Assembly (NCBI GenBank): GCA_965197475.1
Contig: CBDANF010000003.1
Location: 224,001-288,000, forward strand
Direction: 5' to 3'
From: Candidatus Poribacteria bacterium
GTDB lineage: Bacteria > Poribacteria > WGA-4E > WGA-3G
DNA length: 64,000 nt
Program-made: the position numbers and the translations under genes
Notes under the pieces: model-generated
Told to the model about the DNA's origin: nothing
What the model saw: only the letters and a program-made list of their open reading frames with translations
Databases searched by the model: none
In this document: piece after piece, positions 1,310 to 25,365 of the stretch
Layout of the letters: each line of letters begins with the position of its first letter
Numbering within the stretch: position 1 is the stretch's first letter

Positions 1310-2611
1310 ATGCATAAAAAAAATCGAGAAAACTTTATAGAACAGATGGGGTCTGGGAGCGTTGCAATCTTTGCTAATGCGCCTGCTGCAATGCGGAACC
1401 ACGACACAGAACATATTTATAACCCCGATCCGAATTTTTATTACCTCACAGGTTTTGAAGAACCGGAATCGATTTGTGTTATCGCACCTGACCATCCAAA
1501 ACATCAATATGTTTTGTTTGTGCTTCCCAAAGATGAAAAAGCCGAAATCTGGAACGGCAAACGGGTCGGCGTTGAAGATGCCTGTGCACACTACGGTGCA
1601 GACAAAGCATTCCCAATAGACAAGTTTGAAAAGAGAATAGGCAGATACTTAAAAAAGGCTGAACGGCTGTATTACACGCTTGGCTCCAATGGCCATGTTG
1701 ACGCTGAAATCCTCGCCCGTTTTAAACAGGGTGTGAGGTCGCGTATTCGCACTGGAAAAGGAATCCATACGCTTGTTGATCCGAGTCCAATTCTCAGTGA
1801 AATGCGGTTAATCAAAAATGAGACGGAACTGTATCGTATAAGGCAGGCAGCGGATATTACGGTGGATGGTCATATCGCAGCGATGGTAGCAGCACGTCCG
1901 GGGATGTACGAGTACGAATTAGAGGCGATTGTAGATGCAACCTTCCGTAGCAGTGGCGCAAACGGCACCGCTTTTCCGACAATTGTCGCGAGTGGGGGAA
2001 ACGCAACGATCCTTCATTATAGAACTAACGACTGCCAGATTGAAGATAATACGCTCGTTCTTATTGATGCAGGTGCAGAATATGAACGCTACTGCGGGGA
2101 CGTAACCCGAACCTTTCCTATCAACGGCACTTTTACCGACGCGCAAAGAGAGATATATCAACTTGTTCTTGATGCACATTATGCGATTATTGACACGATT
2201 CGTCCGGGGGTCTCTATTGATGAACCGCACCAAAAATCGATCGAGTTGTTGACAGAGGGGATGCTTAGTCTCGGTCTTTTAAAGGGCAAAACGAAAAAAT
2301 TGATAAAGAAAGAGACATACAAGCAGTTCTATATGTATCGTGTGGGGCACATGATCGGCTTAGATGTTCACGATGTTAATTGTGTTCGCGATGCAGAAGG
2401 TGAGTTTAAAACCTTTGAACCCGGGATGGTCATCACAATTGAACCTGGACTCTACGTTGCGGAAGGCACGAAAAAGGTTCCTACAGATTACCTCGGCATC
2501 GGTGTCCGCATTGAGGACGATATTCTCGTCACGGAGTCCGGCTGTGAGGTGCTAACTGATGTTGTTCCAAAGGAAATTGATGCGATTGAGGAACTGATGA
2601 AACAGGGTTAA
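1310..2611 (+). CDS. pepP: Xaa-Pro aminopeptidase (M24B)
   Basis: FYYLTGFEEP N-domain, DAGAE, GDVTRT, GHMIGLDVHD, EPGLY and GVRIEDD metal-binding motifs. Confidence 0.93.
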   Translation: MHKKNRENFIEQMGSGSVAIFANAPAAMRNHDTEHIYNPDPNFYYLTGFEEPESICVIAPDHPKHQYVLFVLPKDEKAEIWNGKRVGVEDACAHYGADKAFPIDKFEKRIGRYLKKAERLYYTLGSNGHVDAEILARFKQGVRSRIRTGKGIHTLVDPSPILSEMRLIKNETELYRIRQAADITVDGHIAAMVAARPGMYEYELEAIVDATFRSSGANGTAFPTIVASGGNATILHYRTNDCQIEDNTLVLIDAGAEYERYCGDVTRTFPINGTFTDAQREIYQLVLDAHYAIIDTIRPGVSIDEPHQKSIELLTEGMLSLGLLKGKTKKLIKKETYKQFYMYRVGHMIGLDVHDVNCVRDAEGEFKTFEPGMVITIEPGLYVAEGTKKVPTDYLGIGVRIEDDILVTESGCEVLTDVVPKEIDAIEELMKQG

Positions 2612-2648
2612 CTACCCATCATGTGTTATCTGTTGAAGCCATAAACCT

Positions 2649-2822
2649 ATGAGAAATTACCAATTTTATCTCAAAGATATTTATGAAGCAATGAGTGCTG
2701 TCCAAACATTTGTCAAAGGTATTGATTTTGATGCGTTTGTCGTAGATGATAAAACCACCTCTGCTGTCATCTGGAAACTTGAAATTATTGGAGAAGTGGC
2801 TAAAAATATTTTGGAACTGTAA
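2649..2822 (+). pseudogene. Truncated DUF86/HepT-like toxin fragment (57 aa)
   Basis: Manual translation MRNYQFYLKDIYEAM...DDKTTSAVIWKLEIIGEVAKNI matches the N-half of DUF86 proteins. It stops before the RxxxxH motif. Confidence 0.7.
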
Positions 2823-2836
2823 TATTATAATCGGTG

Positions 2837-4601
2837 TTATTCCGTAACAACCGTTTCCTCTCCAAGCATATCAATAATCTTCACAGCAACGCGGGCATCA
2901 GGACGTGGCAACGTTACCGTGTATTCTCCCTCAACAAAATCATCCTTTTTCTCTGGAACATCGCTCTCAACTATTTTGAATCCTGTGTATTCTCCCTCAA
3001 CAAAAATGCTCTCCTGTGTAGTCAGTATCAATTAGCACACAATCAATCTGTGCGCGGAAGTCGTCAATTTGCTCGTCAAAAATGGTGCGGTCTATGTCCA
3101 TACGCGCTAAAATGGTAGGACTAATGTACTCTGCGATGGTAATTTTGAGACTATCTCCCTCTCTCTCAAAATTAACCTCTGCGGATGCAGGCTCAAACGT
3201 AGTTATTCCTTCGCTGCCGATGTCACGCACAAATATTTTGTTTACTGCGCGCCGCCTGTTTTCCTCCTTGAGTTCCGCCTGAATGTTACTATTGGTCCCG
3301 TAGCAAAATACAGTGATGTTGCGCGACTCTTCCGGACGATTCTCAAGTTCATCTTTAATTGTCTGAATATCTAATGGGGTAAGCGGTTTTGTAAGGTCAA
3401 TGATTTTGACGAGTGTTCCGTCAAGTGTTCCATCAAAAAATGCCTCTTGCCTATCAGTTTGCACGCCATATTTTTTAATCACAATATCCCTTCGCTCCAA
3501 ATCGGTACTGGCATCGTAGTTATTGACCCGATAATGCACAATGCCGCGCTGCATATCTGGCAACTTCTGTAGTCTCTTTATTGTCGTTTGAATTGCACCT
3601 TTGTTGATATCTGCAGCGATCCAACGTCTACCGAGTTTTTCAGCAACGGCAGCCGTGGTACCGCTGCCGACAAAGCAGTCAAGCACAATATCACCCTCGT
3701 TTGAAGAAGCATTGATAATACGTTCTACGAGTGCTTCAGGTTTTTGGGTTGGATATCCTATACGTTCATTATCGTCCCCTTGTATAGTAAGTTCCTTTTC
3801 TATCCATAGATTTCCAATAGCGACTCCAGGATTAGTATCAAGGTAGACTTTCTTAACAGTGCCTTGTAGATATTTGCGACCACGAGGTATTGCATAACGT
3901 CGTCCATTTTCGTCAATGTGTCTATATTCAGATTTGATAGTTTCTTCTGATAATGGACGGTATATGGCATTGAAAGTATATCTATCGGTGACAGAGTAAA
4001 ACAGTAAAGTGTCGTTCTCAGTTGTAAATTTTAGCTTCGCTGTATTTTTATGTCCACCATATTTTCTCCACACAATTTCATTTCTAAAGTTAATTTCTCC
4101 AAAAATCTCGTCCAACGTTAACCTCAAATAACTGTTCATTCGCCAGTCACAATGCACATAGATAGCCCCTTTATCTGATAACAATTCCCGCATCAAAATC
4201 AACCGTTCATACATAAATTGAAGATAAGTATCATTTGCCCAGATATCACTGTATTGTATCTGTTCAGCAATAGTGTGTCCTTCAGCCTCCAGAACCTTCT
4301 TTTGACCGCGTAATGCCACTTTCCGCACATAATCAGCACCGCTTGCAAAAGGCGGATCAATGTAGATAAGGTCTATCTTACCACGAAAACCTTGCACCAG
4401 CAGTGTGGAGAGAATCTCTTTGTTATCACCGTGAAAAAGGAGGTTAGGACCGTCCTTAAATTTGTCGTAACTCGGTTCTTTTTCTGCGTTCTCAACGTTA
4501 TAGCTATCTATCAATTGCGCAGGGTAGTTGCTTATCGTGTCAATTGGGCGTTTGCCTACCCAGTGCAGCATGGGTCTGCCTTTAACTGGCTTGATTTTCA
4601 C
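2837..4601 (-). CDS. mod: Type III R-M Mod subunit (beta-class amino-methyltransferase); extreme C-terminus frameshifted by a 25-bp insertion
   Basis: IYIDPPF (motif IV), YPTQKPE and DCFVGSGTT (motif I). Removing 2981-3005 restores YTGEHFKIVESD...VAVKIIDMLGEE in frame to the stop at 2837. Confidence 0.88.
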
Positions 4602-4652
4602 TGTGTTCCTTCTTGTAGTTTAGAAATCGCATAAAATGTTCTGGGTGGGATA

Positions 4653-5222
4653 TTAGGGATTTACTATACGCTGCTGCTTCAATGTTTCTATTTCTCGTGC
4701 AAGTTCTTCAATGCGTCTCTCTTGCTCGCGATCGCTTCTTCCGCGCCATGCAATGAGTATCTGTGGAATGCCTACGGCTAAGACAATAAGAGCTATTAAC
4801 CCGTAAGTGACATTTGTCGCATGTGAGATTTGATCCTTAACGCCATCAAATTGTTTATCAACGCCATCAAATTGTTTATCAACGCCATCAAATTGTTTAT
4901 CAACGCCATCAAATTGTTTATCAACGCCATCAAATTGTTTATCAACGCTATCAAATCGTTTGTCAACACCTTCCAGTTTGCCGCGTATCCAGGAGATGTC
5001 CATGTGAATAGGAAATGAATCCTTTTGCTCTAGCCATGGTTCTGCTCTTCCTTCCTCTACTTTTTGAAGACGGGTATCTAATGCTTTGATTTCTGCTTTT
5101 ATTGGATCTATTTCCTCTTTGAGAATCGATCGGATCTTATCAAGGTCTTGAGGTGTTAAATCAGCGAAAGTTGGCAAAATAATTGTCCACAAGACTATTG
5201 ATAATAATAAAACATTTTTCAT
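4653..5222 (-). CDS. Signal-peptide, coiled-coil heptad-repeat membrane protein
   Basis: N-terminal signal sequence, (DKQFDGV)x5, a C-terminal TM helix and a charged tail. Confidence 0.75.
   Translation of the reverse strand: MKNVLLLSIVLWTIILPTFADLTPQDLDKIRSILKEEIDPIKAEIKALDTRLQKVEEGRAEPWLEQKDSFPIHMDISWIRGKLEGVDKRFDSVDKQFDGVDKQFDGVDKQFDGVDKQFDGVDKQFDGVKDQISHATNVTYGLIALIVLAVGIPQILIAWRGRSDREQERRIEELAREIETLKQQRIVNP
4839..4964. repeat. 21-bp tandem repeat (5 perfect + 1 degenerate copies)
   Basis: AACGCCATCAAATTGTTTATC repeated from 4839; encodes DKQFDGV. Confidence 0.97.
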
Positions 5223-5560
5223 TGTATTTCCTCCAAAATAGCATGCGGTGAGTGAAGGGAGTCTTTTAACTTAGAAAGAATGTCCAACACTTTATCCAAT
5301 TGCGGTGGATGCTCGGTATTAAGGAGATAAGTGAGAGCCTGGGGGTTAAGATTTGTCCATGTGACAAGTTCTTCAATTCCGCCTTGTGCTTCTACAATAT
5401 CTTTCATGGAAAGTAATAGTATCTCAATGTTGCCATCTTTATCAAAATCTTGCAGTGCAGCTTCAAGATAACCTTTTGCAAATTCTGGTTGTGCCAGGTC
5501 TTTGAGAAAATAGTCTTTAAAAGGTGTTGTGTATTGCTGAAGTTTGATATCTGCATTCAT
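5219..5560 (-). CDS. Addiction-module antidote-like HTH protein (HI1420/HigA-like)
   Basis: YLEAALQD...LLSMKDIVEAQGGIEEL...P.LDKVLDIL pattern. Confidence 0.7.
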   Translation of the reverse strand: MNADIKLQQYTTPFKDYFLKDLAQPEFAKGYLEAALQDFDKDGNIEILLLSMKDIVEAQGGIEELVTWTNLNPQALTYLLNTEHPPQLDKVLDILSKLKDSLHSPHAILEEIQ

Positions 5561-6273: not shown

Positions 6274-8922
6274 TCATTGTTTCTGTAAGGGTTCGTTCCC
6301 ATAAATCCATTCGCGAATTTTCTGCATTTCGTCTATATTCTCCTGTAGAAAAGCGTCCTTCGTATAAATGACGTGATATTCAAAGTGAGCGTCCGGTTGT
6401 AACTTTGCCAGACGTTTCACCGCCTTCTTTTTCGCCACGACGTCCGGGGCACCGCGTTCGCTTTCAGACTTAATCTCAACAATGTAGAATTCTCCTGTGT
6501 TCTTGACGATGACAAAATCGGGAAAATAGCGGTGATAATTGTTATCAGTGCCTTTGTATTCAAAGTGAAAATCGGTTTTCTTGGTATTCGTTAAACTTCC
6601 GGTAAACAGGAATACTTTGACATCTGCAACGGATTCCTTAAGTGTTAACAAAATCGTTTTAAAGAAATTCTGTTCGGGGCCGCTATCAAAATCGTAGGGC
6701 GTATAATGAAAACTCGCATCGTGATCGTCATCTAAGTCCTCTTCACTGAGCAGCAGGTCAGCTTTACTTTTGCGCAGGCGCACCTTGTGAACGTAGCAGT
6801 CCTCAGCCGCATCTTTTTCAAAAAGTAGGTTGCCATCGTCATCGTGGATACGGATAAGCGCGAGGTATTCCGTAATCGTTTCCTCAATCACTTCGTAATT
6901 TTGCTGTTGGTCTTCCACCTGTTTGCATAGCGAATCGAAGTGTTTGAACGGGACTTGCCCCTCTGGATAAAGCTTTTTCAGGATTTTGAGCGTCTCTATA
7001 ACAGAGAGATGATAGTTTGTTGCAAGTCGTCTTGCAAGTGTGTAGCAATCCGTTGTCCGATTAGCAATCTCCACCTTGTCCTGCGCGCCTAACGCTGTTA
7101 GAGGAGAGGCACCCCGCTGCGTAAAATCGGGAGTCAGAATGCTGCGAAATGCAGGTGGAGTCTCCCTTACATCTGTAGGCTTATACAACTGAATTGCTTT
7201 AGGTGCATTTTCCAGAGGAACAACCTTGCACACCAATTGCATAATTTTTAATTTCGGTAAATCAGTTTTGCGAATGCGAAGTGCAACCTCCTCTGTTTCT
7301 GCGTCTTGTCTACGCAGTTCACCAAGTGTGGTGCCGAAGTTTGCTTGTAATTCTTTATCTAAAATCGTACTGTTTTTCGTATCCAAAAAGATTTTTGCTG
7401 TCCGTGTGTTACCTTTTACTTGACGTAGGCATCGCGTTGAGGCTTGCAAGATAAAGTTACTACTCGTTGTTTGTTCTTTAATAAGCGCGCAAGCGAATAG
7501 ACTTGGACAATTCCATCCCTCTGTCCCTTTGCCAATAAGTAGAATAATACGTTTTTGGCTGTCAGGATTGTTAAGTTGGTTGAATTCATCAATCTCGGCT
7601 TGACTGGATTTTTGGGTATTAACGAGTATCTGCGTGGTGTTCTCTCCGATTTCTGTTAGCGCGTTTTGGATGTGCTGATTGGAAGCATCCAAATGTTCTT
7701 GCGTCCTGAAGTAAAAGGCGATTTTGGATTTCGCACCATCGGGCAATGATACATCACCGTAGTTATCAAAAAAATCGTTGATAACGCTACGGATCACGTC
7801 TTGGTCAGGAATAGTTCCGATAGGATACTGAACAATGCCGTTGTGAAGACTTTTAAGGATGTTGTCCTTTATCCCTTCACCGAGACTATACCATGCCACA
7901 ACTTCTCTGAGCATCTGCCGTTTGGCGTAAGGGGTGCCGGTGGTGTTGATAACAGCTATGAGAGGCGTTTTCTCATGTATGTAGTTAACTGTTTCGCGTA
8001 CCCGTTTGAGTTCTGTGTCTATTTTGTTTCCATAAGTATGATGTGCCTCGTCTGAGAAGACCCCTAAACTTGGCAAACTCGTTATTTTTTGGAGACGGAG
8101 GTTTGCCTCTAATTCTGCTTGTTCCTTCTTTTCCTCAAATTCAAACAGCGACTGATTTGCCCGCTGCCTCATGTTTGCTCTCAAACTAATTTTCTCGGTG
8201 TTCGTGACGATGACGTTGAAAGCACTACCCGCTTGGACTTGAATCTCTTTTGCCCCGGTCTGTGGGTAGGTAAGCTTGAGATTGGCAAGGAAGTCACGGT
8301 GTAGACTGGGCGGTAGAATTTGATCAAAAGGAATGTCACTGATTTCACGGAGACTTTCAATAATCGTTGTGCCGGGAGCAAAGACGAGGGCATTTTTCAT
8401 AAATTCGCCATTAGGATAGCGGAGTGTCATCGCGAATTCGGTTGCAATAATAGTGCCGATAAGAACCGTCTTGCCTGTGCCCATTGCAAGCGCAAAGATA
8501 TAACTTGGATATGGAAGGCTTATCGCTTCGTAAACAGGATCAATTCCTTTCTGTTTAAAGAATTCGGGTTTCTCTTTCACTAAGTTAATGACGGCATCAA
8601 CATTCTGAATCAACATCGCTTCGTTTTCAGTGATTGGAATACCGAATGCTTCACAGAAATCGCGTATATCGCCAGTTGTATCGTAGTAGTGTTTATAGAG
8701 TTCAACAATATGCGGGGTGTTCAGGACTAATCTGATATACCAGTAGAGTTCCAGTGATTGGAATTGCGGTTCACGGAGGTATTTGAGGTGGACGCGTTCC
8801 CCTGCTTCGCCTTCAAATTGCCAGCGTAGCACCTCTCCGATAAGCGGGTAATCTTGGCAAGGGTATCCATCTTTACGCCATTTTAGTGTGTCGGCACGTA
8901 GTTTTTCATAGAGGTGTTGCAT
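6274..8922 (-). CDS. res: Type III R-M Res subunit (SF2 helicase + PD-(D/E)xK nuclease)
   Basis: AMGTGKT Walker A, DEAHH, EGWNCP, QASTRCLR and C-terminal YFPDF...VEIK. Confidence 0.88.
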   Translation of the reverse strand: MQHLYEKLRADTLKWRKDGYPCQDYPLIGEVLRWQFEGEAGERVHLKYLREPQFQSLELYWYIRLVLNTPHIVELYKHYYDTTGDIRDFCEAFGIPITENEAMLIQNVDAVINLVKEKPEFFKQKGIDPVYEAISLPYPSYIFALAMGTGKTVLIGTIIATEFAMTLRYPNGEFMKNALVFAPGTTIIESLREISDIPFDQILPPSLHRDFLANLKLTYPQTGAKEIQVQAGSAFNVIVTNTEKISLRANMRQRANQSLFEFEEKKEQAELEANLRLQKITSLPSLGVFSDEAHHTYGNKIDTELKRVRETVNYIHEKTPLIAVINTTGTPYAKRQMLREVVAWYSLGEGIKDNILKSLHNGIVQYPIGTIPDQDVIRSVINDFFDNYGDVSLPDGAKSKIAFYFRTQEHLDASNQHIQNALTEIGENTTQILVNTQKSSQAEIDEFNQLNNPDSQKRIILLIGKGTEGWNCPSLFACALIKEQTTSSNFILQASTRCLRQVKGNTRTAKIFLDTKNSTILDKELQANFGTTLGELRRQDAETEEVALRIRKTDLPKLKIMQLVCKVVPLENAPKAIQLYKPTDVRETPPAFRSILTPDFTQRGASPLTALGAQDKVEIANRTTDCYTLARRLATNYHLSVIETLKILKKLYPEGQVPFKHFDSLCKQVEDQQQNYEVIEETITEYLALIRIHDDDGNLLFEKDAAEDCYVHKVRLRKSKADLLLSEEDLDDDHDASFHYTPYDFDSGPEQNFFKTILLTLKESVADVKVFLFTGSLTNTKKTDFHFEYKGTDNNYHRYFPDFVIVKNTGEFYIVEIKSESERGAPDVVAKKKAVKRLAKLQPDAHFEYHVIYTKDAFLQENIDEMQKIREWIYGNEPLQKQ

Positions 8923-17076: not shown

Positions 17077-17679
17077 TGTTAAATTCATTGCTATATTCAA
17101 TATAGTTGCCCATGTAAAGGTCAAGGAAACCATCGGCATCGTAATCGCCCCACGCAATACCCGACCCGAATCCTGTATGTCCGATACCTCCTGCCCCGAT
17201 GTGAAACGTTTGAATGTCCCATCTCCTCTATTTAAATAGAAAACATTCGCTTTATAGTTTGTGACATAAAGATCAGGATCGCCATCGTTATCATAATCAA
17301 CAAAGGCACACCCCATACCCCAACCTGTGTCACCAACACCCGCGATGTCAGTTACATCTGTAAATGTGCCATCGCCGTTGTTTCGGTAGAGCACGTTTTT
17401 TGGAAGAGTTGCCCCCGGTTCAGGTCTCACTGCGGTGCTGTTGACAATGTAGAGATCAAGCGTGCCATTATTATCATAATCTCGCCAGGCAGCACCAGAG
17501 CCAACAAGTGCTGGCACCACACGGAGGTCAATACCACCGGCATGTTTGAAGCGAATTCCTGATGCTTCGGTAACATTTACAAACTGAATCTCTGCCGCGT
17601 GTCCGTACCAGACAAGCATTATGCTCAATAATATCAAACTTGTGAAAACAGATATGTACCTGTTCCGCATGTGAGGCAC
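17074..17679 (-). pseudogene. Truncated, frameshifted FG-GAP/ASPIC-UnbV (CRTAC1-like) protein
   Basis: DYDNNGTLDLY and DYDNDGDPDLY repeats. A -1 shift at the C run 17194-17197 continues as WGDYDADGFLDLY; homology then ends near the terminator. Confidence 0.8.
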
Positions 17680-17728: not shown

Positions 17729-17803
17729 ATACACATTTCGCCCCGCTGGGGCTAAGAGGGTTATTCACCAGCGTTTCTATACACATTTCGCCCCGCTGGG
17801 GCT
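17729..17803. repeat. Pair of 25-bp REP-like direct repeats
   Basis: ATACACATTTCGCCCCGCTGGGGCT at 17729 and 17779, each containing a GCCCC-GCT-GGGGC hairpin. Confidence 0.85.
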
Positions 17804-17977
17804 GCCTTTGCTGAACCTATAATAGTTTTTCTGTGGGTTACAACTTTGCACAAAACTCGTAGAAAAATAGAAAGGACTTGAGAACACAACATGAAACAGA
17901 CAGAAATTGTCCAAACTTTAGTAAAACTAAACGCAATAAGTAGTTTTGGACTTGCAACAAGCCATTGAATTTTTCAC

Positions 17978-18007
17978 TTGACTCTCTTTTCTCCCACATG
18001 TTATACT
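17978..18007 (+). promoter_or_regulatory. Sigma70 promoter inside the IS left end
   Basis: TTGACT-18 nt-TATACT with TGn extension; predicted +1 about 18013-18014. Confidence 0.7.
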
Positions 18008-18011
18008 ATCC

Positions 18012-18090
18012 TAACGTTGTTGGTAGGGAATCTCATCTGTCTCGCTTGAGGCAGTCCCTACCAAACCGAATGAGATCGGGAACAACGTTA
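18012..18090 (+). ncRNA. Candidate pseudoknotted structured RNA (HDV-like stem order)
   Basis: Stems 18012-21/18081-90, 18022-29/18055-62, 18030-36/18070-76 (crossing) and 18037-43/18048-54; it starts at the predicted TSS. Confidence 0.65.
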
Positions 18091-18150
18091 AGGTTAAACA
18101 ACGTGATCCTATAAACAAAACACGTACAACCCTTACCATAAGGGAATATC

Positions 18151-18387
18151 ATGGTACTTTTAGTGTGGCCACTTCTTGTATTTGCTTACTATAAGCAAAA
18201 ATACACGTTGAAAAACTGGCTTTTGTTTTTCGCTATCATTGGATCTATAGTCACTGTTCTCGGTGCTCGAGAATACGCATTAGTAGCATTGGTAGCCCAA
18301 ATTGTCGGCATACCTATTATTTTTCTGTCGGCAAGATTCACCGCTTGGTGTATCAAACGGTATGTAAACCGAAAGAAAACAGACTAA
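18151..18387 (+). CDS. IS passenger: small membrane protein (78 aa)
   Basis: AAGGGA RBS, 2-3 hydrophobic segments and a basic C-terminus. Confidence 0.65.
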   Translation: MVLLVWPLLVFAYYKQKYTLKNWLLFFAIIGSIVTVLGAREYALVALVAQIVGIPIIFLSARFTAWCIKRYVNRKKTD

Positions 18388-18435
18388 CCCAACAACGAGG
18401 TGCCCCTGTCCCCTCTAACTCACAAAGGAACTATC

Positions 18436-18771
18436 ATGTTAATCATATTTCCAAAACCTGAACAAATCACTGGATTTTGTCCATTAGCCGTAAATCTTAA
18501 TATTTATGATGAAATTGTGATCATCAAGAACAACGAATCAAACTTGTTCAATCTGACTCTGTTGAAACATGTAGACGCTCATGGATCGAACCAATCAACT
18601 TTTCTCTACAATTTGGGCATCTTCCAATCCGAGTCAGATTGCTATACATTGTTCCAAAATATTCTCGAAGCTTTGAATTCGGATCAAAAGACATTCGAGC
18701 TTCCGCCATCTGTGCTGCAAGCACCGCCTGAACCCGCGGATCATGCAAAGAAACGCCCTGGGTACCTTTAG
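18436..18771 (+). CDS. IS passenger: hypothetical protein (111 aa)
   Basis: AAGGA RBS before ATG 18436; converges on the transposase stop. Confidence 0.6.
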   Translation: MLIIFPKPEQITGFCPLAVNLNIYDEIVIIKNNESNLFNLTLLKHVDAHGSNQSTFLYNLGIFQSESDCYTLFQNILEALNSDQKTFELPPSVLQAPPEPADHAKKRPGYL

Positions 18772-18777
18772 TTTCAC

Positions 18778-19662
18778 TCATCTCATACTCTCATTAACAA
18801 ACTTATCAAAGATGCTGTCAATGCTCCTATAGTTATACTTGTAGCACGCCTCTGCGACATACAGGGGCGTATATTCAGTCCAATAGTGGTGATGTGAACC
18901 ATACCAAGCGCGTTTGAGAAGCGACCAAAACCCCTCAATCGTGTTTGTGTGGACATCACCGTCAACAAATTGCTCTTGATGATTGATGATATGATGCTTC
19001 ATATCTCTACCGAGTGCGAGATAAGCATTATATTCATCGGTCATCAACTCCGAATCCTGAACTTTCACGGCTCTTCGGATAAAGTCTAAAATAGTCCGTC
19101 CTGTCAAATCCCTTGCAAGTTGTGCTACAACTTTCCCACCGCGTTGGACAGCCCCGATGATTGCGTCTTTATCAGTGCCACGACCACGCTTGGCAGGCTC
19201 CGCATCTGCTTTCTTGTTCGGCTTGCGAGGTTTACCCCCGATGTAAGTTTCATCAGCCTCTATGATGCCTTGTAATAGCACGTTGCTACCTTTCTTTGCC
19301 ATTTCAGCACGGATACGAGTCATTATAAACCATGCAGTTTTCTGATTCAAGTCTAAATCACGACTCAACTGGTAACTGGATAACGACTTCTTCGCATTCA
19401 CAATCAACGAGATCGCCAAAAACCACTTCTGAAGTGCTATCTTTGTCCCGTGAAACACCGTGCCACACGTCACCTTGAAAGTAGCAGTGCAATCATGGCA
19501 TTGCCAGCGTCCGATGCGTCCCAATTCCGTCTCTGTCCGTTCCGCAACGTTTAGACTATCACAATGCGGACATCTTGGTTCACCACGCCACCGAATATAT
19601 TCCAAATGCTCAATACATGCTTCTTGGTCAGGAAAACGCTCCATTACCTTCAATAAATCCAT
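18778..19662 (-). CDS. IS1595-family DDE transposase
   Basis: Zn ribbon CPHC...CHDC, HTH (KTAWFI), EADETYIGG, LMTDE and HTNTIEGFW. Confidence 0.95.
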   Translation of the reverse strand: MDLLKVMERFPDQEACIEHLEYIRWRGEPRCPHCDSLNVAERTETELGRIGRWQCHDCTATFKVTCGTVFHGTKIALQKWFLAISLIVNAKKSLSSYQLSRDLDLNQKTAWFIMTRIRAEMAKKGSNVLLQGIIEADETYIGGKPRKPNKKADAEPAKRGRGTDKDAIIGAVQRGGKVVAQLARDLTGRTILDFIRRAVKVQDSELMTDEYNAYLALGRDMKHHIINHQEQFVDGDVHTNTIEGFWSLLKRAWYGSHHHYWTEYTPLYVAEACYKYNYRSIDSIFDKFVNESMR

Positions 19663-19681
19663 CAGATACTCCTTGAAATAG

Positions 19682-19792
19682 GAGTTGCTTTTTCTGACGG
19701 ATTTCTGATATAATACCAGATAAGATTAGAACCGTCAAAAAGCAACTCGCTTTTTGTGTTCATTTAGGGGGCTACCAACCCCCTACTTTCTT
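19682..19792. promoter_or_regulatory. Inverted repeat holding two overlapping, oppositely directed sigma70 promoters plus a downstream terminator
   Basis: Plus strand TTGCTT 19685 / TATAAT 19709; minus strand TTGACG 19738 / TATTAT 19715. Hairpin TAGGGGG-CTACCAA-CCCCCTA plus CTTTCTT at 19765-19792. Confidence 0.55.
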
Positions 19793-20004
19793 ATCTATAT
19801 TGTATCATAGTTGCACAATTAAAACAAGTGGAAATGTAGTCTACATCTGTGTTTGTAGCGATTTTTACATGTTTGTTGCAAGTCCAAAACTACTTATTGC
19901 GAAAATAAATACAAGAATATTTACGTTAATATGGTATTAGGTTGTGTTTATATTTCAAAAGTCAGGATATTCAAAAGGTATATTCTATTGCCTGTGAGTA
20001 TACG

Positions 20005-22149
20005 TTAGAATGACTTATTTTCAACATCCGGATCAATTTCTTTTGCCTTTGCAAAGTCTGCGCTTGCTTCTTCGTGTAGTCCATGTGCTTCTTTTGCTTG
20101 TGCACGTTCGTAGTAGTAAAGCGCATTATCTGAATTAATCCGAATTGCCTCACTGAAATCTTCAATTGCCTCATCATAATTACCAAGCGCAGCCTTTGCA
20201 GCTGCCCGGGTGTGGTAGGCGGGAGCACTCGGTTTGTCTGAATTTAGACGAATCGCCTCATCACTGTCAGTGACTGCTGCTTGAAAAAGAATGTTGGCTT
20301 CTTCTTTATCTCCATGCTCAACTTCTAATTGTCCAAGCATATACTTTTTCCATCCTCTCCCATTATAGGTTGAGGCGTATTCTGGGTTTATTTTGATAGC
20401 TTCTGTATAGTCGTCAATAGACGCTTTATAGTATTCTCGCGCATCCGCTATGTTCCCTTGATCCGCTTTAGATTTACCAAGATTGTACTTCGCGAAACCA
20501 CGACTGTAGTAAGCAACATGATCCTTAGGTCTCAACTGGATAGCATTATCATAGGCTTCTATCATCCCTTTATAGTCACCGAGTTTACCTTTCGCAAGTC
20601 CAATGTTTTTGTAATATCCAGCAAACTCTGGATCTAATTTGATTCCCTCCATATAGTCATCTATAGCCTGTAGAAAGTATTTAGTGGCTTCTGCGTCATC
20701 CCCTTTGTTTGCTATGGATCTACCAAGGTGGTACTTCGCCAATCCACGCATGTTGTATGTTCTATAATCTTTCGAGTTGGCTTGGATGACTTTGTTGTAG
20801 TCTTCAATCGCCCCTTCATAGTCGCCGAAACAGTATTTTGCTTTTCCGCGACTTTCATAGACGTTGAAAAAAGTACTGAATTCAGGATTAATACTGATCA
20901 TTTTATCAAAGTTTTCAATAGCCCCGGCATAATCCTCTAACTCACACTTCAAATTTCCGAGACAAAAGTAGACTTCTATTGAATCAGGGTTGAGTTTCAG
21001 GGCAATATCAAAATCGGCGAGTGCCGCTTCATGTTGGTCAAGGCCAAATTTTGCCATTGCTCTGCAGATATAGGATTGAACAAGATCAGGGTCAAGTTTG
21101 ATGGCAACATCACAGTCAGCAACAGCGTCTTTGTATTGTTCTAACGATAAGTGTGCGGCTGCTCGGTTGTTATATGCCCATTCAAAATCGGGATTAATCT
21201 TGAGGACAACATCACAGTCAGCAATTACGTCTTTGTATTGTTCTAACGATAAATTTGCAGCTGCTCTGTTGATATACGCCTCTAAAAAGTCAGGATTGAG
21301 TTCTATGGCAGCATCACAGTCAGCAATAGCGTCCTCCGCTTCACCCAAGAATACATTTAAACCCGCCCGAGTGACGTATATCTCCACTAAATCTGGATTA
21401 AGTTCAAGGGCAGTGTCAAAGCATTTTTTTGCCTCCATGTGTTTACCTTCCGCAATTATCATCTGACCCTGCACACCTTGAGCATAGCCACGTATCCGTG
21501 GAAGTTTTTGCCATTCTTCTAAAGGTTCCGCTTCCCTCAAGCTCACAAGCAAGTAGTTTAAGACATTTGCTGGGATCGCATGGCTAATAGATGGCATCTC
21601 TCCTCTACTAAAAGCCGATATCTCAAAGGAAGCACCAACTGCAACACCTATTACCTCACCTGTGTTGTTTAGCAGGGCACCCCCACTATGTCCGGGACCA
21701 ATTCTCCCTTTAATCCGGACATATTTATCGCTATTCCTTATACCGAGGAGGGTGACTTGTGTGGCTACACCTTTTTCTCCACCGGGGTACCCTACGGCAC
21801 AAGCAACATCACCACTTTTGACCATATCACTGTCGCTAATGGAAAGCGGTATCCCTTCACCTGTGACTTTTAGTATGACAAGGTCGTTTTTAACATCAAA
21901 CGCGACTACTCCTTCAACTGGATATCGAGTTTCCGTACTGGCAAGTTCGGCAAAAATAGAGGGTGCACCTGCAATACAATGAATATTTGTCACAACCCTG
22001 TTTGGACTAACAAAGAACCCGGTTCCACGTAGCCAGACAAGAAGTTTACCAGATTCTTCGTCAGTTTTTTGCCATACTATACTGACTACTGATTCCATTA
22101 GGGCTTTTTCACCAATCTGTTGCAGTCTTTTATCTCTTTTTTCTTCCAT
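20005..22149 (-). CDS. Trypsin-like serine protease fused to a TPR array
   Basis: GTGFFV, TNIHCI, NDLVIL and GHSGG triad motifs, followed by many 34-aa TPRs. Confidence 0.9.
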   Translation of the reverse strand: MEEKRDKRLQQIGEKALMESVVSIVWQKTDEESGKLLVWLRGTGFFVSPNRVVTNIHCIAGAPSIFAELASTETRYPVEGVVAFDVKNDLVILKVTGEGIPLSISDSDMVKSGDVACAVGYPGGEKGVATQVTLLGIRNSDKYVRIKGRIGPGHSGGALLNNTGEVIGVAVGASFEISAFSRGEMPSISHAIPANVLNYLLVSLREAEPLEEWQKLPRIRGYAQGVQGQMIIAEGKHMEAKKCFDTALELNPDLVEIYVTRAGLNVFLGEAEDAIADCDAAIELNPDFLEAYINRAAANLSLEQYKDVIADCDVVLKINPDFEWAYNNRAAAHLSLEQYKDAVADCDVAIKLDPDLVQSYICRAMAKFGLDQHEAALADFDIALKLNPDSIEVYFCLGNLKCELEDYAGAIENFDKMISINPEFSTFFNVYESRGKAKYCFGDYEGAIEDYNKVIQANSKDYRTYNMRGLAKYHLGRSIANKGDDAEATKYFLQAIDDYMEGIKLDPEFAGYYKNIGLAKGKLGDYKGMIEAYDNAIQLRPKDHVAYYSRGFAKYNLGKSKADQGNIADAREYYKASIDDYTEAIKINPEYASTYNGRGWKKYMLGQLEVEHGDKEEANILFQAAVTDSDEAIRLNSDKPSAPAYHTRAAAKAALGNYDEAIEDFSEAIRINSDNALYYYERAQAKEAHGLHEEASADFAKAKEIDPDVENKSF

Positions 22150-22331
22150 TGTAATATTCCTTTTTGCGTTGAACTGTCAGATAATTTGGTCGTTTATATT
22201 ATGTTTAGGTAAAACTTAAACATAATGATAACATTAAAACGAGAAAAAGCGTAATTGAATTGTAAGTTGTGTAGGTTGTACAGCATAATTGTCCAATTTT
22301 AGAGTTACTATGATCATTCAATGGACAAGGT

Positions 22332-24952
22332 TTACTCTTTCGGTTTGATAAAAGCATTAAGATCCCAAAGATATACGACACCATCAAGTCCACCGCTCGC
22401 GAACAGGTTCCCATCTGGACTAAACACAACAGAATGGACATCTTGCCGATGTCCTTTGACTGTAACAATGTGTGTTTCCGTTGATACATCCCACAGATCA
22501 ATTTGACTCCAACTACCACTCACCAATGTCCTACCATCCGGACCAAACGAGATACTATTAAGCACATTTTTACCCGAAATTGTTGCTTTGTGTTCTAACT
22601 TAGTAACATCCCATAGTTTGATAGTTGAGTCTCTACTTCCGCTCGCTATCGTCTTGCCATCCGGACTAAACGCAACTGAATTAACCCAATTCGAATGTCC
22701 TATAAGTGTCTTTAGATGGCTGCCCGTAGCGATATGCCATACGCGGACAGTAGAATCTCTACTTCCACTCGCTAATAATACCCCATTTGGACTGAAGGCA
22801 ACCGACAGGACACGATCTGTATGACCTGTTAGGGTTGCTTTGATCGCACCAGTGGAAACATCCCATAGCTGCACAGTATTGTCTTCACTCCCACTTGCCA
22901 ACCTCTTACCGTCTGGACTGAACTTAACGGATGTAACATCCTGTGTATGTCCTGCAAAGTTAGATACTTGTTCTGCAGTTGCAACATCCCATAGACGGAT
23001 AGTCGAGTCAGCTCCGCCACTTGCCAACAACATGCCGTCTGGACTGAACGATAACGAAGCAACCCAGCGCGTATGCCCCGAGAATGTATTTTTATATGTA
23101 GCAGTATTTACATCCCATAGAAGAACGGAAGCACTACCTGTACTCGCCAGTATCTCACCATCCGGACTAAATGCCACAGAATTGGTAACAACTATATGTC
23201 CAGTAAAGGTATTAATTTGTTCCCCAGATGCAATCTCCCATACGCGAATTGTTCCATCATTGCTTGCACTTGTTAGTGTCTCACCGTCCGGACTAAAGGC
23301 TACAGAATTAACAGGACCTGTATGCCCTACGAACGTGGCAATCGGCGAGGTGCTTACATCCATATCTTGACCAATACCCCACAAATTGATAATATTATCA
23401 GTACCCCCACTCGCCAACACCCCACCATCCGGACTAAAGGCTACACACGTATGCCCTTTGAGCGTTGCTTTGTGCTTGCCAGTACCAATATCCCAGAGCC
23501 GGACAGTTCCGTCCCAACTTCCGCTGACGACAGTCTCACCATCCAGACTAAACGCTACAGATGTAACCTGCCGTGTATGTCCTCTTAGTGTTGCTTTCAA
23601 AGTGCCGGTGTTAACATCCCAAAGATAACATTTTTATCAGCATTCCCGCTTGCTATTGTACGACCATCCGGACTGAACGCCACAGATGAAACACTCTCCC
23701 TATAATTAGACTCCTTATTTTTGCTGAGGGTCGCTTTGAGTTCATCCGTTTCAGCATCCCAAATACGGATTCTGTCCAACTCCGCAGTTGCTAACATCCT
23801 ACCGTCGAGACTGAAGACTACTGAATCTACAGGATTCAGCACTCCGGAAACTGTAAGTGTTGACTTTTGGGTGCGTGTGGCAACATTCCACAGCGTTGTG
23901 GATTTCCCATTTGCGCCACTTGCGAGTGTCTGTCCATCTGGACTGAACGCGATTGAATTAACTTCTGTAGCACCACCCATCAAGGCAAGTTCCTGTGTCG
24001 TTTCCGCATCATATAGCCAAATTCCAGCATAGGTCGCAACGGCAAGTAGTTTACCATTTGGCGAATACTTAATCTCATTTACCCCACCTTTACCCAACCG
24101 TGCTATTGCACCTTTGGGTAAACCCCAGCGTGTGTATTCTGGTGCTCTAATTATTGGACTTGATTGTGTATCCTCCTGAGCAGATGGCAAATTTACATCC
24201 CCTGTATTCTGAGGACCGAAATAGTATTGCATCCCAATTCCAATTAGTAATACAAATGAAACACAAACAGCGGCAGAAATTGCCAATGGCACCAGAGGAC
24301 TCCCACCTGATGGTGCTACTGGACCCAGTTGTGAAATCTCTTTCATCACGTTTGCTGTTAATTCTGTTGAGAATTGGAATCCACCGAGAATCTCTTGAAT
24401 CATGCCTTCCTCCTTCTTTAATCGGTTCCGCGCACGGTGCAGCCGACTCTTAACTGTGTTTGTTGATACACCGAGAAACTGACCAATCTCTTCACAACTC
24501 AAACCAGTAAGATAGTGAAGTGTTATTACTGTGCGATCGCTTTCTCGCAGCTTGCTAAGCAGTTTATGAACTAACGCGTGACGCTTTTCTTTTGTCGCTT
24601 CCTCACGCTCCCGTGATACATGTTCCGAATAGTATACTTCCTCTAACTCAATCGGGTCTGTATCTTCTAACGATTGTGGTTGTGGGGTTTTCTTTCGGTA
24701 CCACGTGATACACTTACGATTTGTGATGGTATATAACCATCCTGCAAAGCGGCCACGATTTTTGAGGGTCCCAAGTTTTTGATACGCTGTGATGAATACA
24801 TCCTGAGTAATCTCTTGTGCAATGTGAAAATCACCGACCTTCTGCCATGCCAATGCGTGTATCTGATCTTGGTATTTTTCAACCAGCGCAGCAAAGGCAC
24901 GCTCATCACCTTCAAGTGTGCGTTCAATCAACTCAGCATCATTGTGGCTCAT
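22332..24952 (-). pseudogene. ECF sigma factor-TM-WD40 repeat fusion split by a -1 frameshift
   Basis: Sigma regions 2 and 4, a TM helix, then WD40 repeats. Adding one base at the A run 23621-23623 joins ASGNADKNVI to WDVNTGTLKATLRGH. Confidence 0.85.
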
Positions 24953-25365
24953 GTGACACCTCAAAATAGAAATAATCTTTTAATTTATAGACGCGATTTT
25001 GAATTGGAAGGTTGCACTTTTGCCAAAAAAAATACGTGTTTTTTAGGAAAATGAGCAATTATTTTGAGAGATGGACAAAATAACAATGCATCCTTCTTTG
25101 GAAGGGTATATCTTAAAGGATAGCATAAGGATTAAACAGCAGCCAACTTAAAAACACAACACTCTCAATAAAAGTGGGGTTTTGGTAATTTCCAATTTCG
25201 TAAAGATATTTTAAGGCTCCCTGGCAAGAAGGTAACCGATAAGCAGAAAGGCACGCATAAAAAGCGTGCCTAATGAAACTTTGGTAACTCAATTCTAAAA
25301 CAATTACAAGGAAGGGATAACGTAGGGACTTGAGATTAAAATGAAAATCTCGGTTTTTGAGAACT

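Follow-up and report, generated by a model that had tools for sequence, protein, structure and literature searches.

Within a 64,000-nucleotide (nt) stretch of DNA from a Candidatus Poribacteria bacterium (contig CBDANF010000003.1, positions 224,001 to 288,000; the whole stretch is 'the window' below) lies an insertion sequence (IS) of the IS1595 family that carries more than a transposase. We think it likely that positions 17932–19901 are one intact element, probably a recent arrival at this site, and that it is a 'transporter IS' (tIS) with a self-sufficient passenger operon: a promoter, a structured leader, and two genes, ORF1 and ORF2 (ORF, open reading frame), neither of which is obliged to accompany the other. 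The kind of element is already known; the cargo alone is new.

Ends, transposase and class

17924–17931, no strand: left copy of the target-site duplication, AAACTAAA, 8 bp, AT-rich
17932–17960, + strand: left inverted repeat (IRL), 29 bp
18151–18387, + strand: ORF1, small integral membrane protein (predicted), 78 amino acids (aa)
18436–18771, + strand: ORF2, soluble protein, 111 aa from its ATG or 123 aa from an upstream GTG
18778–19662, − strand: IS1595-family DDE transposase, 294 aa, full length
19873–19901, − strand: right inverted repeat (IRR), 29 bp
19902–19909, no strand: right copy of the target-site duplication, AAAATAAA, 8 bp, AT-rich

The element is 1,970 bp long and has a G+C content of 42.3%, against 43.2% for the window. 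Its two arms are complementary at all 29 of 29 nt (100%), and the 29-mer end sequence, with up to three mismatches allowed, occurs in only two places in the window (0/100 shuffles). Immediately outside the arms, AAACTAAA and AAAATAAA agree at 7 of 8 positions. Matches of at least 7/8 occur in 40 of the 62,014 8-mer pairs in the window that are separated by the duplication's offset, and in 1 of 345 such pairs when both 8-mers are AT-rich. A mutation after insertion is the simplest account of the single mismatch.

The transposase belongs squarely to the IS1595 family. It matches the ISXO2-like DDE_Tnp_IS1595 domain (PF12762) at 1.6e-36 over profile positions 2–153 of 153, the PF12760 zinc ribbon at 1.4e-09 over residues 11–60 (38.2 bits; cut-off 25.4), and the IS1595 transposase model NF033547 at 1.8e-55 (188 bits; cut-off 75). 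Relatives abound—7,017 of the 8,000 scored candidates score at E ≤ 1e-30—and since the best 120, which are 71–98% identical and 264–344 aa long, are mostly 292–298 aa, the gene looks intact. An alignment with close relatives, 7 of them, has 183 invariant columns. Transposases from the plasmid collection are at most 39% identical to that of the element.

Together, the DDE domain, the zinc ribbon, the bounding repeats and the 8-bp AT-rich duplication place the element in the IS1595 family. A repeat search of the window found no third copy of the repeat between ORF2 and the transposase gene, and so the cargo lies inside a single element rather than between an IS and a solitary end. ORF1 and ORF2 occupy the space between IRL and the transposase gene with no internal repeat copy, the arrangement by which a tIS is recognized. 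Neither contains a transposase or recombinase domain known to Pfam or NCBIfam, and we class both as genes probably unrelated to transposition.

Passenger-bearing IS-like elements have been called 'transporter ISs', with citation of Siguier et al. 2009 (PMC3129680), and tISs of the IS1595 family are described, too, in a TnCentral preprint. Such elements resemble ours in having a single IS1595-type DDE transposase, terminal repeats, an 8-bp duplication, and passengers inside the repeats; ours differs from the elements so described in that its passengers are unannotated, come with a promoter and a conserved structured leader of their own, and converge with the transposase gene. ISApl4, of the IS1016 group of the same family, also generates AT-rich 8-bp target duplications (AAACATAA and TTAATAAA, for example) but it is an element of 712 bp with 14-bp repeats and no passengers, whereas ours has 1,970 bp, 29-bp repeats and two passengers (PMC12561309). 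Our literature searches returned nothing that joins Poribacteria with IS1595, and nothing relevant on IS1595 together with a non-coding RNA or riboswitch, or with the subgroup ISNwi1.

No further copies of the ends, leader, ORF1, ORF2 or transposase were found in the window. A 14-nt match to the right end at 7015–7028 lies inside an ORF and stops there, and we attribute it to chance. An 8-mer common to both end regions, GTTGGTAG, was spotted by eye and dropped, some 0.7 chance matches being expected by a hand estimate.

Much of this had been anticipated. An earlier note on this DNA, written from the sequence alone, had proposed a compact IS1595 element with perfect 29-bp terminal repeats and an 8-bp near-duplication, enclosing two extra genes that have their own promoter and converge with the transposase. 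All of these features are where the note had put them, and both genes prove to be conserved coding sequences. Its general remark that IS1595 members can carry passengers accords with the tISs that have been described.

The passenger proteins

ORF1 has the look of a membrane protein, as the earlier note had said of this 78-aa product. Its hydropathy profile displays three hydrophobic stretches, spaced by KQK..LK and GA.E, and then a basic C-terminal tail. A word-based search assembled a family of 25 clusters (all 25 candidates, its own cluster included) that are 56–100% identical and 73–97 aa long, and one of these is named Candidatus Poribacteria. In the alignment, 12 of the 78 columns are invariant and a further 17 nearly so; a block, FAYYK.K, and the tail, SARFTAWCIKRYVNRKK, are among the parts conserved. 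One cluster, P0009, comprises an identical 78-aa relative recorded on 10 contigs, and related members reside on contigs as large as 6.0 and 6.2 Mb, as might be expected if the gene is mobile and multi-copy in other genomes. Nothing in Pfam, NCBIfam, PADLOC or PHROGs matches ORF1 above cut-off, and the 25 family rows, searched against Pfam, gave sub-threshold matches only. Among these, one member of the 25, P0010, approaches SLATT_1 (E 0.001; 19.6 bits, cut-off 26.3). The ORF1 profile has no match (0) among the sequences of the PDB.

ORF2, too, was correctly located by the earlier note as a 111-aa gene; its ATG is preceded, 8 nt upstream, by AAGGA. Searching by words brought up no more than 4 clusters, whereas a profile run against 1.84 billion representatives gave 43 at E ≤ 1e-3, 14 of them at ≤ 1e-10 and 1 at ≤ 1e-30; one member of the family is named Candidatus Poribacteria. 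The alignment has 39 rows: 34 of the 43 profile matches, the window protein, and the 4 word-search hits; short fragments and partial matches (P0154, P0159, P0181, P0184, P0185, P0189–P0192) were left out. With these 39 rows, AlphaFold2 predicts a five-stranded sheet, one helix (residues 66–81) and a disordered tail, at a mean local confidence (pLDDT) of 83.8 and a predicted template-modelling score (pTM) of 0.70; with 5 rows, the pLDDT was 57. Many family members end in a variable, disordered linker followed by ...LP(K/T)V or ...G(Y/F/I)L, and these end motifs look like a docking tail.

Annotation was no more forthcoming for ORF2 than for ORF1. Pfam, NCBIfam, PADLOC and PHROGs gave nothing above cut-off; the 39 family rows gave scattered sub-threshold matches to Pfam, the commonest being Peptidase_M26_N in 3 of the 39; and the best match of the profile among PDB sequences has an E of 1.5. 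Foldseek found no match (0) to the model at E ≤ 0.001 in PDB or BFVD. The best were insignificant—E 0.85 in PDB, with the listed template-modelling (TM) scores all at or below 0.41, and E 0.057 in the viral library—and, equally insignificant, the neighbours include the WGR domain of PARP2, Pur-alpha, PC4-like proteins, the MRP1/2 guide-RNA-binding proteins and an integrase arm-binding domain. For both cargo proteins, PADLOC offers 0 families at E ≤ 1, the plasmid and phage collections hold no match, and the best ESM Atlas values, 0.84 and 0.85, fall under the 0.9 level required for more than a lead. ORF1 and ORF2 are two separate protein families, both without annotation.

Whether the parts travel together was gauged by looking for contigs of matching size across clusters, a test that covered all 25 ORF1 clusters (7 of them member by member), 19 ORF2-family clusters and the best 120 transposase clusters. 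Only three contig sizes are common to more than one part, and all of the copies concerned are at least 98% identical to the window. One size, 4,167,388 bp, has ORF1, ORF2 and transposase; another, 8,007 bp, has the same three, the last two shorter; and the third, 346,792 bp, has ORF2 and transposase. The 4,167,388-bp size recurs for four other transposase clusters, of 76–88% identity, but for one ORF1 sequence only. Among the best 120 listed, many full-length, close transposases are on contigs of 1.0–1.6 kb. These are too short for the cargo. Within the reach of this test, members of the transposase clade do not carry the cargo as a rule; nor, to the same extent and on the same sequences, do ORF1 and ORF2 appear to be a fixed or obligate pair. 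The genes of a type II toxin-antitoxin system or other two-gene addiction pair should stay together across relatives; by this indirect and incomplete comparison, and in the locus L001 described below, these appear not to.

The predicted passenger promoter and leader RNA

17978–18007, + strand: sigma-70-like passenger promoter, TTGACT, 18 nt, TG-n-TATACT; 10 of 12 positions
18014–18150, + strand: structured 5' leader, its start placed from the promoter
18014–18021 paired with 18081–18088, + strand: helix P0 of the predicted fold
18022–18062, + strand: hairpin P1, with a 7-nt bulge at 18030–18036 and a distal stem at 18037–18054
18066–18079, + strand: hairpin P2 of the predicted fold
18097–18104, + strand: second AACAACGT, read in the sequence
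18131–18145, + strand: small hairpin covering part of the ORF1 ribosome-binding site

The region upstream of ORF1 contains the promoter, the structured RNA and the extra AACAACGT that the earlier note had listed. Folded as 17995–18150, the RNA has a predicted energy of −50.3 kcal/mol (z = −5.6; 0/200 shuffles as stable). The stability resides at the beginning: the first 82 nt from the predicted start, approximately 18014, reach −34.1 kcal/mol (z = −4.7), and P1 alone −24.0 kcal/mol (z = −5.7). The hairpin over the ORF1 ribosome-binding site is nothing unusual (z = −0.4). The 7-nt P1 bulge is perfectly complementary to 18070–18076 in the loop region of P2, a property kept in 87 of 100,000 shuffles. 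P0 could form with either the first or the second AACAACGT, at −47.8 versus −45.5 kcal/mol, so that the exchange costs 2.3 kcal/mol; the ORF1 Shine-Dalgarno and AUG are predicted to be practically as accessible in one case as in the other, 0.53 versus 0.55.

At gathering thresholds, Rfam 15 finds nothing (0 matches) anywhere in the window; in this region, searched at E ≤ 10, the strongest hits below threshold are to eukaryotic snoRNA and miRNA models, with E ≥ 2.7. Because the fold begins at the predicted transcription start and leads into ORF1 with no terminator-like site between (terminator scan), the likeliest reading is that the RNA is the passenger operon's 5' untranslated leader and not a separate RNA gene. 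The earlier note's free-standing non-coding RNA finds no support here: it would have no terminator of its own before ORF1 and it corresponds to no Rfam family, and in the related locus described below no more of it is seen again than the outer and main hairpins. Hairpins at the 5' terminus of a message can protect that end and affect translation. A consensus scan of 17932–18450 gave no promoter-like site on the minus strand, although such a scan cannot exclude one; we accordingly predict no antisense RNA opposite the leader and ORF1. The notion that the leader might be a guide RNA was dropped when its loops, inspected by eye for complementarity to the ends and the target, were found to overlap by only 6 nt (CAACAA).

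A truncated relative in a defence island

A scan of species-representative genomes gave 73 pattern matches, one of which encodes an ORF1 relative. This locus, L001, is on a chromosome of Candidatus Poribacteria, and a 12-kb stretch of it was examined. The order of its parts is familiar: a core of IRL, a promoter-like site, a P0-like helix, P1, and then ORF1. The IRL core (AGT[A/C]GTTTTGGACTTG) is related to that in the window and occupies the same place before the ORF1 homologue. The promoter-like site, TTGACA ... TACAAT, is the same distance from the end, with a spacer that differs in sequence when compared by eye. P0 again starts at the first predicted transcribed bases. The main hairpin has the same base, GGUAGGGA / UCCCUAC, then a 7-nt bulge, a 7-bp distal stem and a tetraloop; all 7 pairs of the distal stem are kept between the two loci, with two compensatory changes (U-A to C-G and C-G to G-C) and one one-sided change (U-G to C-G). 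ORF1 is intact, 67% identical to the window protein, with a dN (nonsynonymous divergence) of 0.21 and a dS (synonymous divergence) of 0.44. ORF1 adjoins IRL, then, in both of the two loci.

Other parts are missing. L001 has no right end and no transposase that we could find, and neither tblastn nor a profile search detects an ORF2-family sequence in the 12 kb, so what remains is a truncated remnant. Some 67 nt of the window leader have no counterpart in it; they comprise P2, the bulge's partner, and the extra AACAACGT. To judge from its sequence, L001 is a remnant stranded in a defence island with ORF1 and its expression signals intact. The earlier note had treated the membrane protein and its partner as a unit; ORF1, its promoter and its hairpin persist here with no ORF2, and the two families share contig sizes only in copies at least 98% identical to the window.

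Upstream of the remnant is a complete-looking type II Zorya system at 2012–5487 on the minus strand (ZorA2 8.5e-72, ZorB2 1.1e-76, ZorE2 9.4e-52); downstream, an IS of unrelated type (DDE_Tnp_1_3) adjoins what is left of a type IIG restriction enzyme, an N-terminal fragment. The fragment, at 6364–8481 in L001, is a restriction-methylase by PADLOC (1.7e-90, profile positions 8–291 of 1646) and ends at the inserted IS. The transposase of that IS is at 6459–7355, and a 16-nt sequence, TTATCAAACTCACGTT, is present on both sides of the IS.

The transposase gene and its control region

19655–19704, − strand: hairpin in the transposase 5' leader, with the Shine-Dalgarno and AUG paired within it
19710–19738, − strand: sigma-70-like transposase promoter, TTGACG, 17 nt, TATTAT, with TG; 10 of 12 consensus positions
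19765–19785, + strand: terminator-like hairpin a little way in from the right repeat, with 7 pairs (5 G-C), followed by CTTTCTTATC

The hairpin in the leader of the transposase gene has a predicted energy of −20.8 kcal/mol (z = −6.0; 0/200 shuffles as stable) and would be expected to repress translation. A perfect 12-nt inverted repeat, 19682–19693 / 19737–19748 (GAGTTGCTTTTT / AAAAAGCAACTC), brackets the transposase promoter, and a transcript arriving from outside could pair across it.

The stop codons of ORF2 and the transposase gene face one another 6 nt apart. A terminator scan found no terminator-like site between the two genes; the first on the plus strand beyond the ORF2 stop, at 19192, is weak, and the hairpin at 19765–19785 is the better candidate.

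IS10 and IS50 are familiar cases of transposases whose translation is self-restrained by leader hairpins. The present element is like them in that the Shine-Dalgarno and AUG of its transposase are paired in a stable hairpin, and an inverted repeat spans the promoter. It differs from them in a possible second layer of restraint, namely convergent passenger transcription with no terminator in between.

How the element might work, and what its cargo might be

If we have understood its organization correctly, the element would behave as follows. The transposase would act on both repeats and move the entire 1,970 bp together with its cargo. A self-sufficient operon would occupy the left 840 bp, transcribed from the sigma-70-like promoter just inside IRL, and the first bases of the transcript would form P0, closing the long, bulged P1 hairpin. 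Most likely this leader protects the 5' end of the mRNA and sets how strongly ORF1 and ORF2 are expressed, whatever the site of insertion. The two proteins, one with three predicted membrane helices and the other a predicted sheet-plus-helix, would stem from different families and have been joined in this IS lineage. Because there is no terminator between the convergent genes, passenger transcription probably continues, antisense, through the transposase gene to the hairpin at 19765–19785. This read-through, and the hairpin that buries the transposase start codon, would between them keep transposition low. As for the purpose of the cargo, our best guess is a membrane-acting accessory that benefits either the host or the element itself.

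Several observations sit uneasily with this account. ORF1 in the two loci has a dN/dS of 0.47, which signifies moderate constraint only. The matching-size cross-check by which we judged whether the parts travel together is an indirect one and takes in the families only in part, and ORF1 relatives could be present in other IS copies of the same genome yet escape being called, being too short or too diverged. Conservation of the leader rests on two sequences, one of them a truncated remnant; with two sequences the shuffle control on P1 is uninformative, 135 of 500 shuffles reaching the observed value. The promoter match is not significant by itself, there being 7 promoter-like sites in the region versus 5.7 ± 2.5 in shuffles. 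Where transcription starts, whether it reads through and what it does as antisense we infer from the sequence. Finally, P2, the bulge-to-loop complementarity, and the duplicated AACAACGT are not explained by a leader that simply stabilizes.

A different view of the leader is as a new ligand-sensing riboswitch or autonomous RNA in which a three-way junction and a bulge-to-loop pseudoknot gate the cargo. The fold is certainly very stable (z = −4.7 to −5.7), the two P0 partners are nearly isoenergetic, the 7-nt bulge has its perfect complement, and P1 has undergone compensatory change between the loci. A riboswitch would be expected to conserve its whole fold and to possess an expression platform, however, and what recurs in the two sequences is P0 and P1 only. 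L001 is without P2, the bulge partner and the second P0 partner, and so the junction and pseudoknot are not conserved. There is no Rfam match and no terminator after the fold, and exchanging one P0 partner for the other leaves the ribosome-binding site, by prediction, as accessible as before. The switch that the earlier note had drawn from the extra AACAACGT finds no support, given its absence from L001 and the unchanged predicted access, and we regard the riboswitch as a most improbable explanation.

A more serious suggestion, though still an unlikely one, is that of the earlier note, which saw in the cargo a module under RNA control, of the toxin, addiction or abortive-infection type. ORF1 would then be a membrane-damaging toxin held in check by the leader, by ORF2, or by both, and the module would stabilize the element or defend its host against phage. 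In type I toxin-antitoxin systems of the hok/sok kind, the toxin is a small hydrophobic protein, and its mRNA has a long, stable 5' structure near the ribosome-binding site. ORF1 and its leader resemble these in their possible mode of action: ORF1 is small, strongly hydrophobic and basic at its tail, and a hairpin takes in part of its ribosome-binding site, with a very stable leader fold before it. That ribosome-site hairpin is ordinary, however; no promoter-like site for an antisense RNA was found opposite the leader and ORF1; and ORF1, at 78 aa and with three hydrophobic stretches, is larger than the classical type I toxins and has no sequence family match. L001 bears on the matter in two ways. 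Its ORF1 has a type II Zorya on one side and a type IIG restriction fragment on the other, the company that a defence gene might keep, but defence islands gather mobile DNA anyway; and this intact ORF1, with its promoter, manages with no ORF2, from which it follows that ORF2 is not an indispensable antidote. The ORF1 cluster recorded on 10 contigs is what one would expect of something mobile, and the sub-threshold resemblance of P0010 to SLATT_1 hints at a conflict system, while PADLOC, Pfam, NCBIfam and PHROGs match neither protein above cut-off. A role of this kind is possible by analogy, but it is a resemblance rather than a supported assignment, and the solitary ORF1 of L001 weakens it.

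The SLATT two-helix effector domains of conflict systems (PF18181) merit a further word. P0010 aligns with positions 20–87 of the 122 in the profile, and SLATT proteins and the ORF1 family alike have small membrane helices and then a basic cytoplasmic stretch; the similarity differs from membership in that the score is below cut-off, is confined to the one member, and is missing from the window ORF1 itself. One could imagine ORF1 as a holin-like or SLATT-like effector gated by a new class of 5' leader RNA, with ORF2 an exchangeable modulator, the whole being a minimal, self-promoted addiction or anti-phage cassette mounted on an IS1595 transposase and able, as in L001, to survive alone. We consider this quite unlikely. 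Less likely again is that ORF1, ORF2 or both are accessory factors for transposition, ORF2, for instance, being a nucleic-acid-binding regulator of the transposase or the ends. In the ORF2 model a single helix packs against an antiparallel sheet, and its weak structural neighbours include nucleic-acid-binding domains, although all of those matches are insignificant. ORF1 does lie beside IRL in each of the loci, but close IS1595 transposases number in the thousands versus a few dozen clusters of ORF1 and ORF2. The 76–88% identical transposases of what is apparently the same genome seem to have no ORF1, and the many 1.0–1.6 kb contigs that accommodate a full transposase gene have no room for both ORFs.

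The analysis defines two unannotated families, a 78-aa membrane protein and a sheet-plus-helix protein of approximately 105 aa. If the tIS reading is right, it adds a further example of an IS1595 tIS and extends these elements to a candidate phylum of mostly uncultured bacteria. The cargo would come packaged with its own promoter and 5' hairpin for expression at any landing site, and convergent transcription and a start-codon hairpin may hold the transposase quiet. The element would acquire greater importance only if the membrane protein were a regulated toxin or a defence effector.

Surroundings of the element

The insertion splits a short frame, 17892–17931 joined to 19910–19942, the ATG of which, at 17892, is behind GAAAGGA when inspected by eye. 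Less one copy of the duplication the frame would have 23 codons, and it is probably not a gene.

To the left of the element, two identical 25-nt direct repeats (ATACACATTTCGCCCCGCTGGGGCT) occupy 17729–17753 and 17779–17803, 50 nt from start to start, just upstream of an FG-GAP gene that starts at 17679 on the minus strand. No other copies were found in the window or in L001. Each repeat holds a GCCCC-GCT-GGGGC palindrome, and the minus-strand fold has a z of −2.1. To the right, at 20005–24964, the minus strand encodes a trypsin-like peptidase of 714 aa that is continuous with many TPR repeats, a 422-aa WD40 propeller protein, and a 455-aa fusion of an ECF sigma factor with WD40 repeats.

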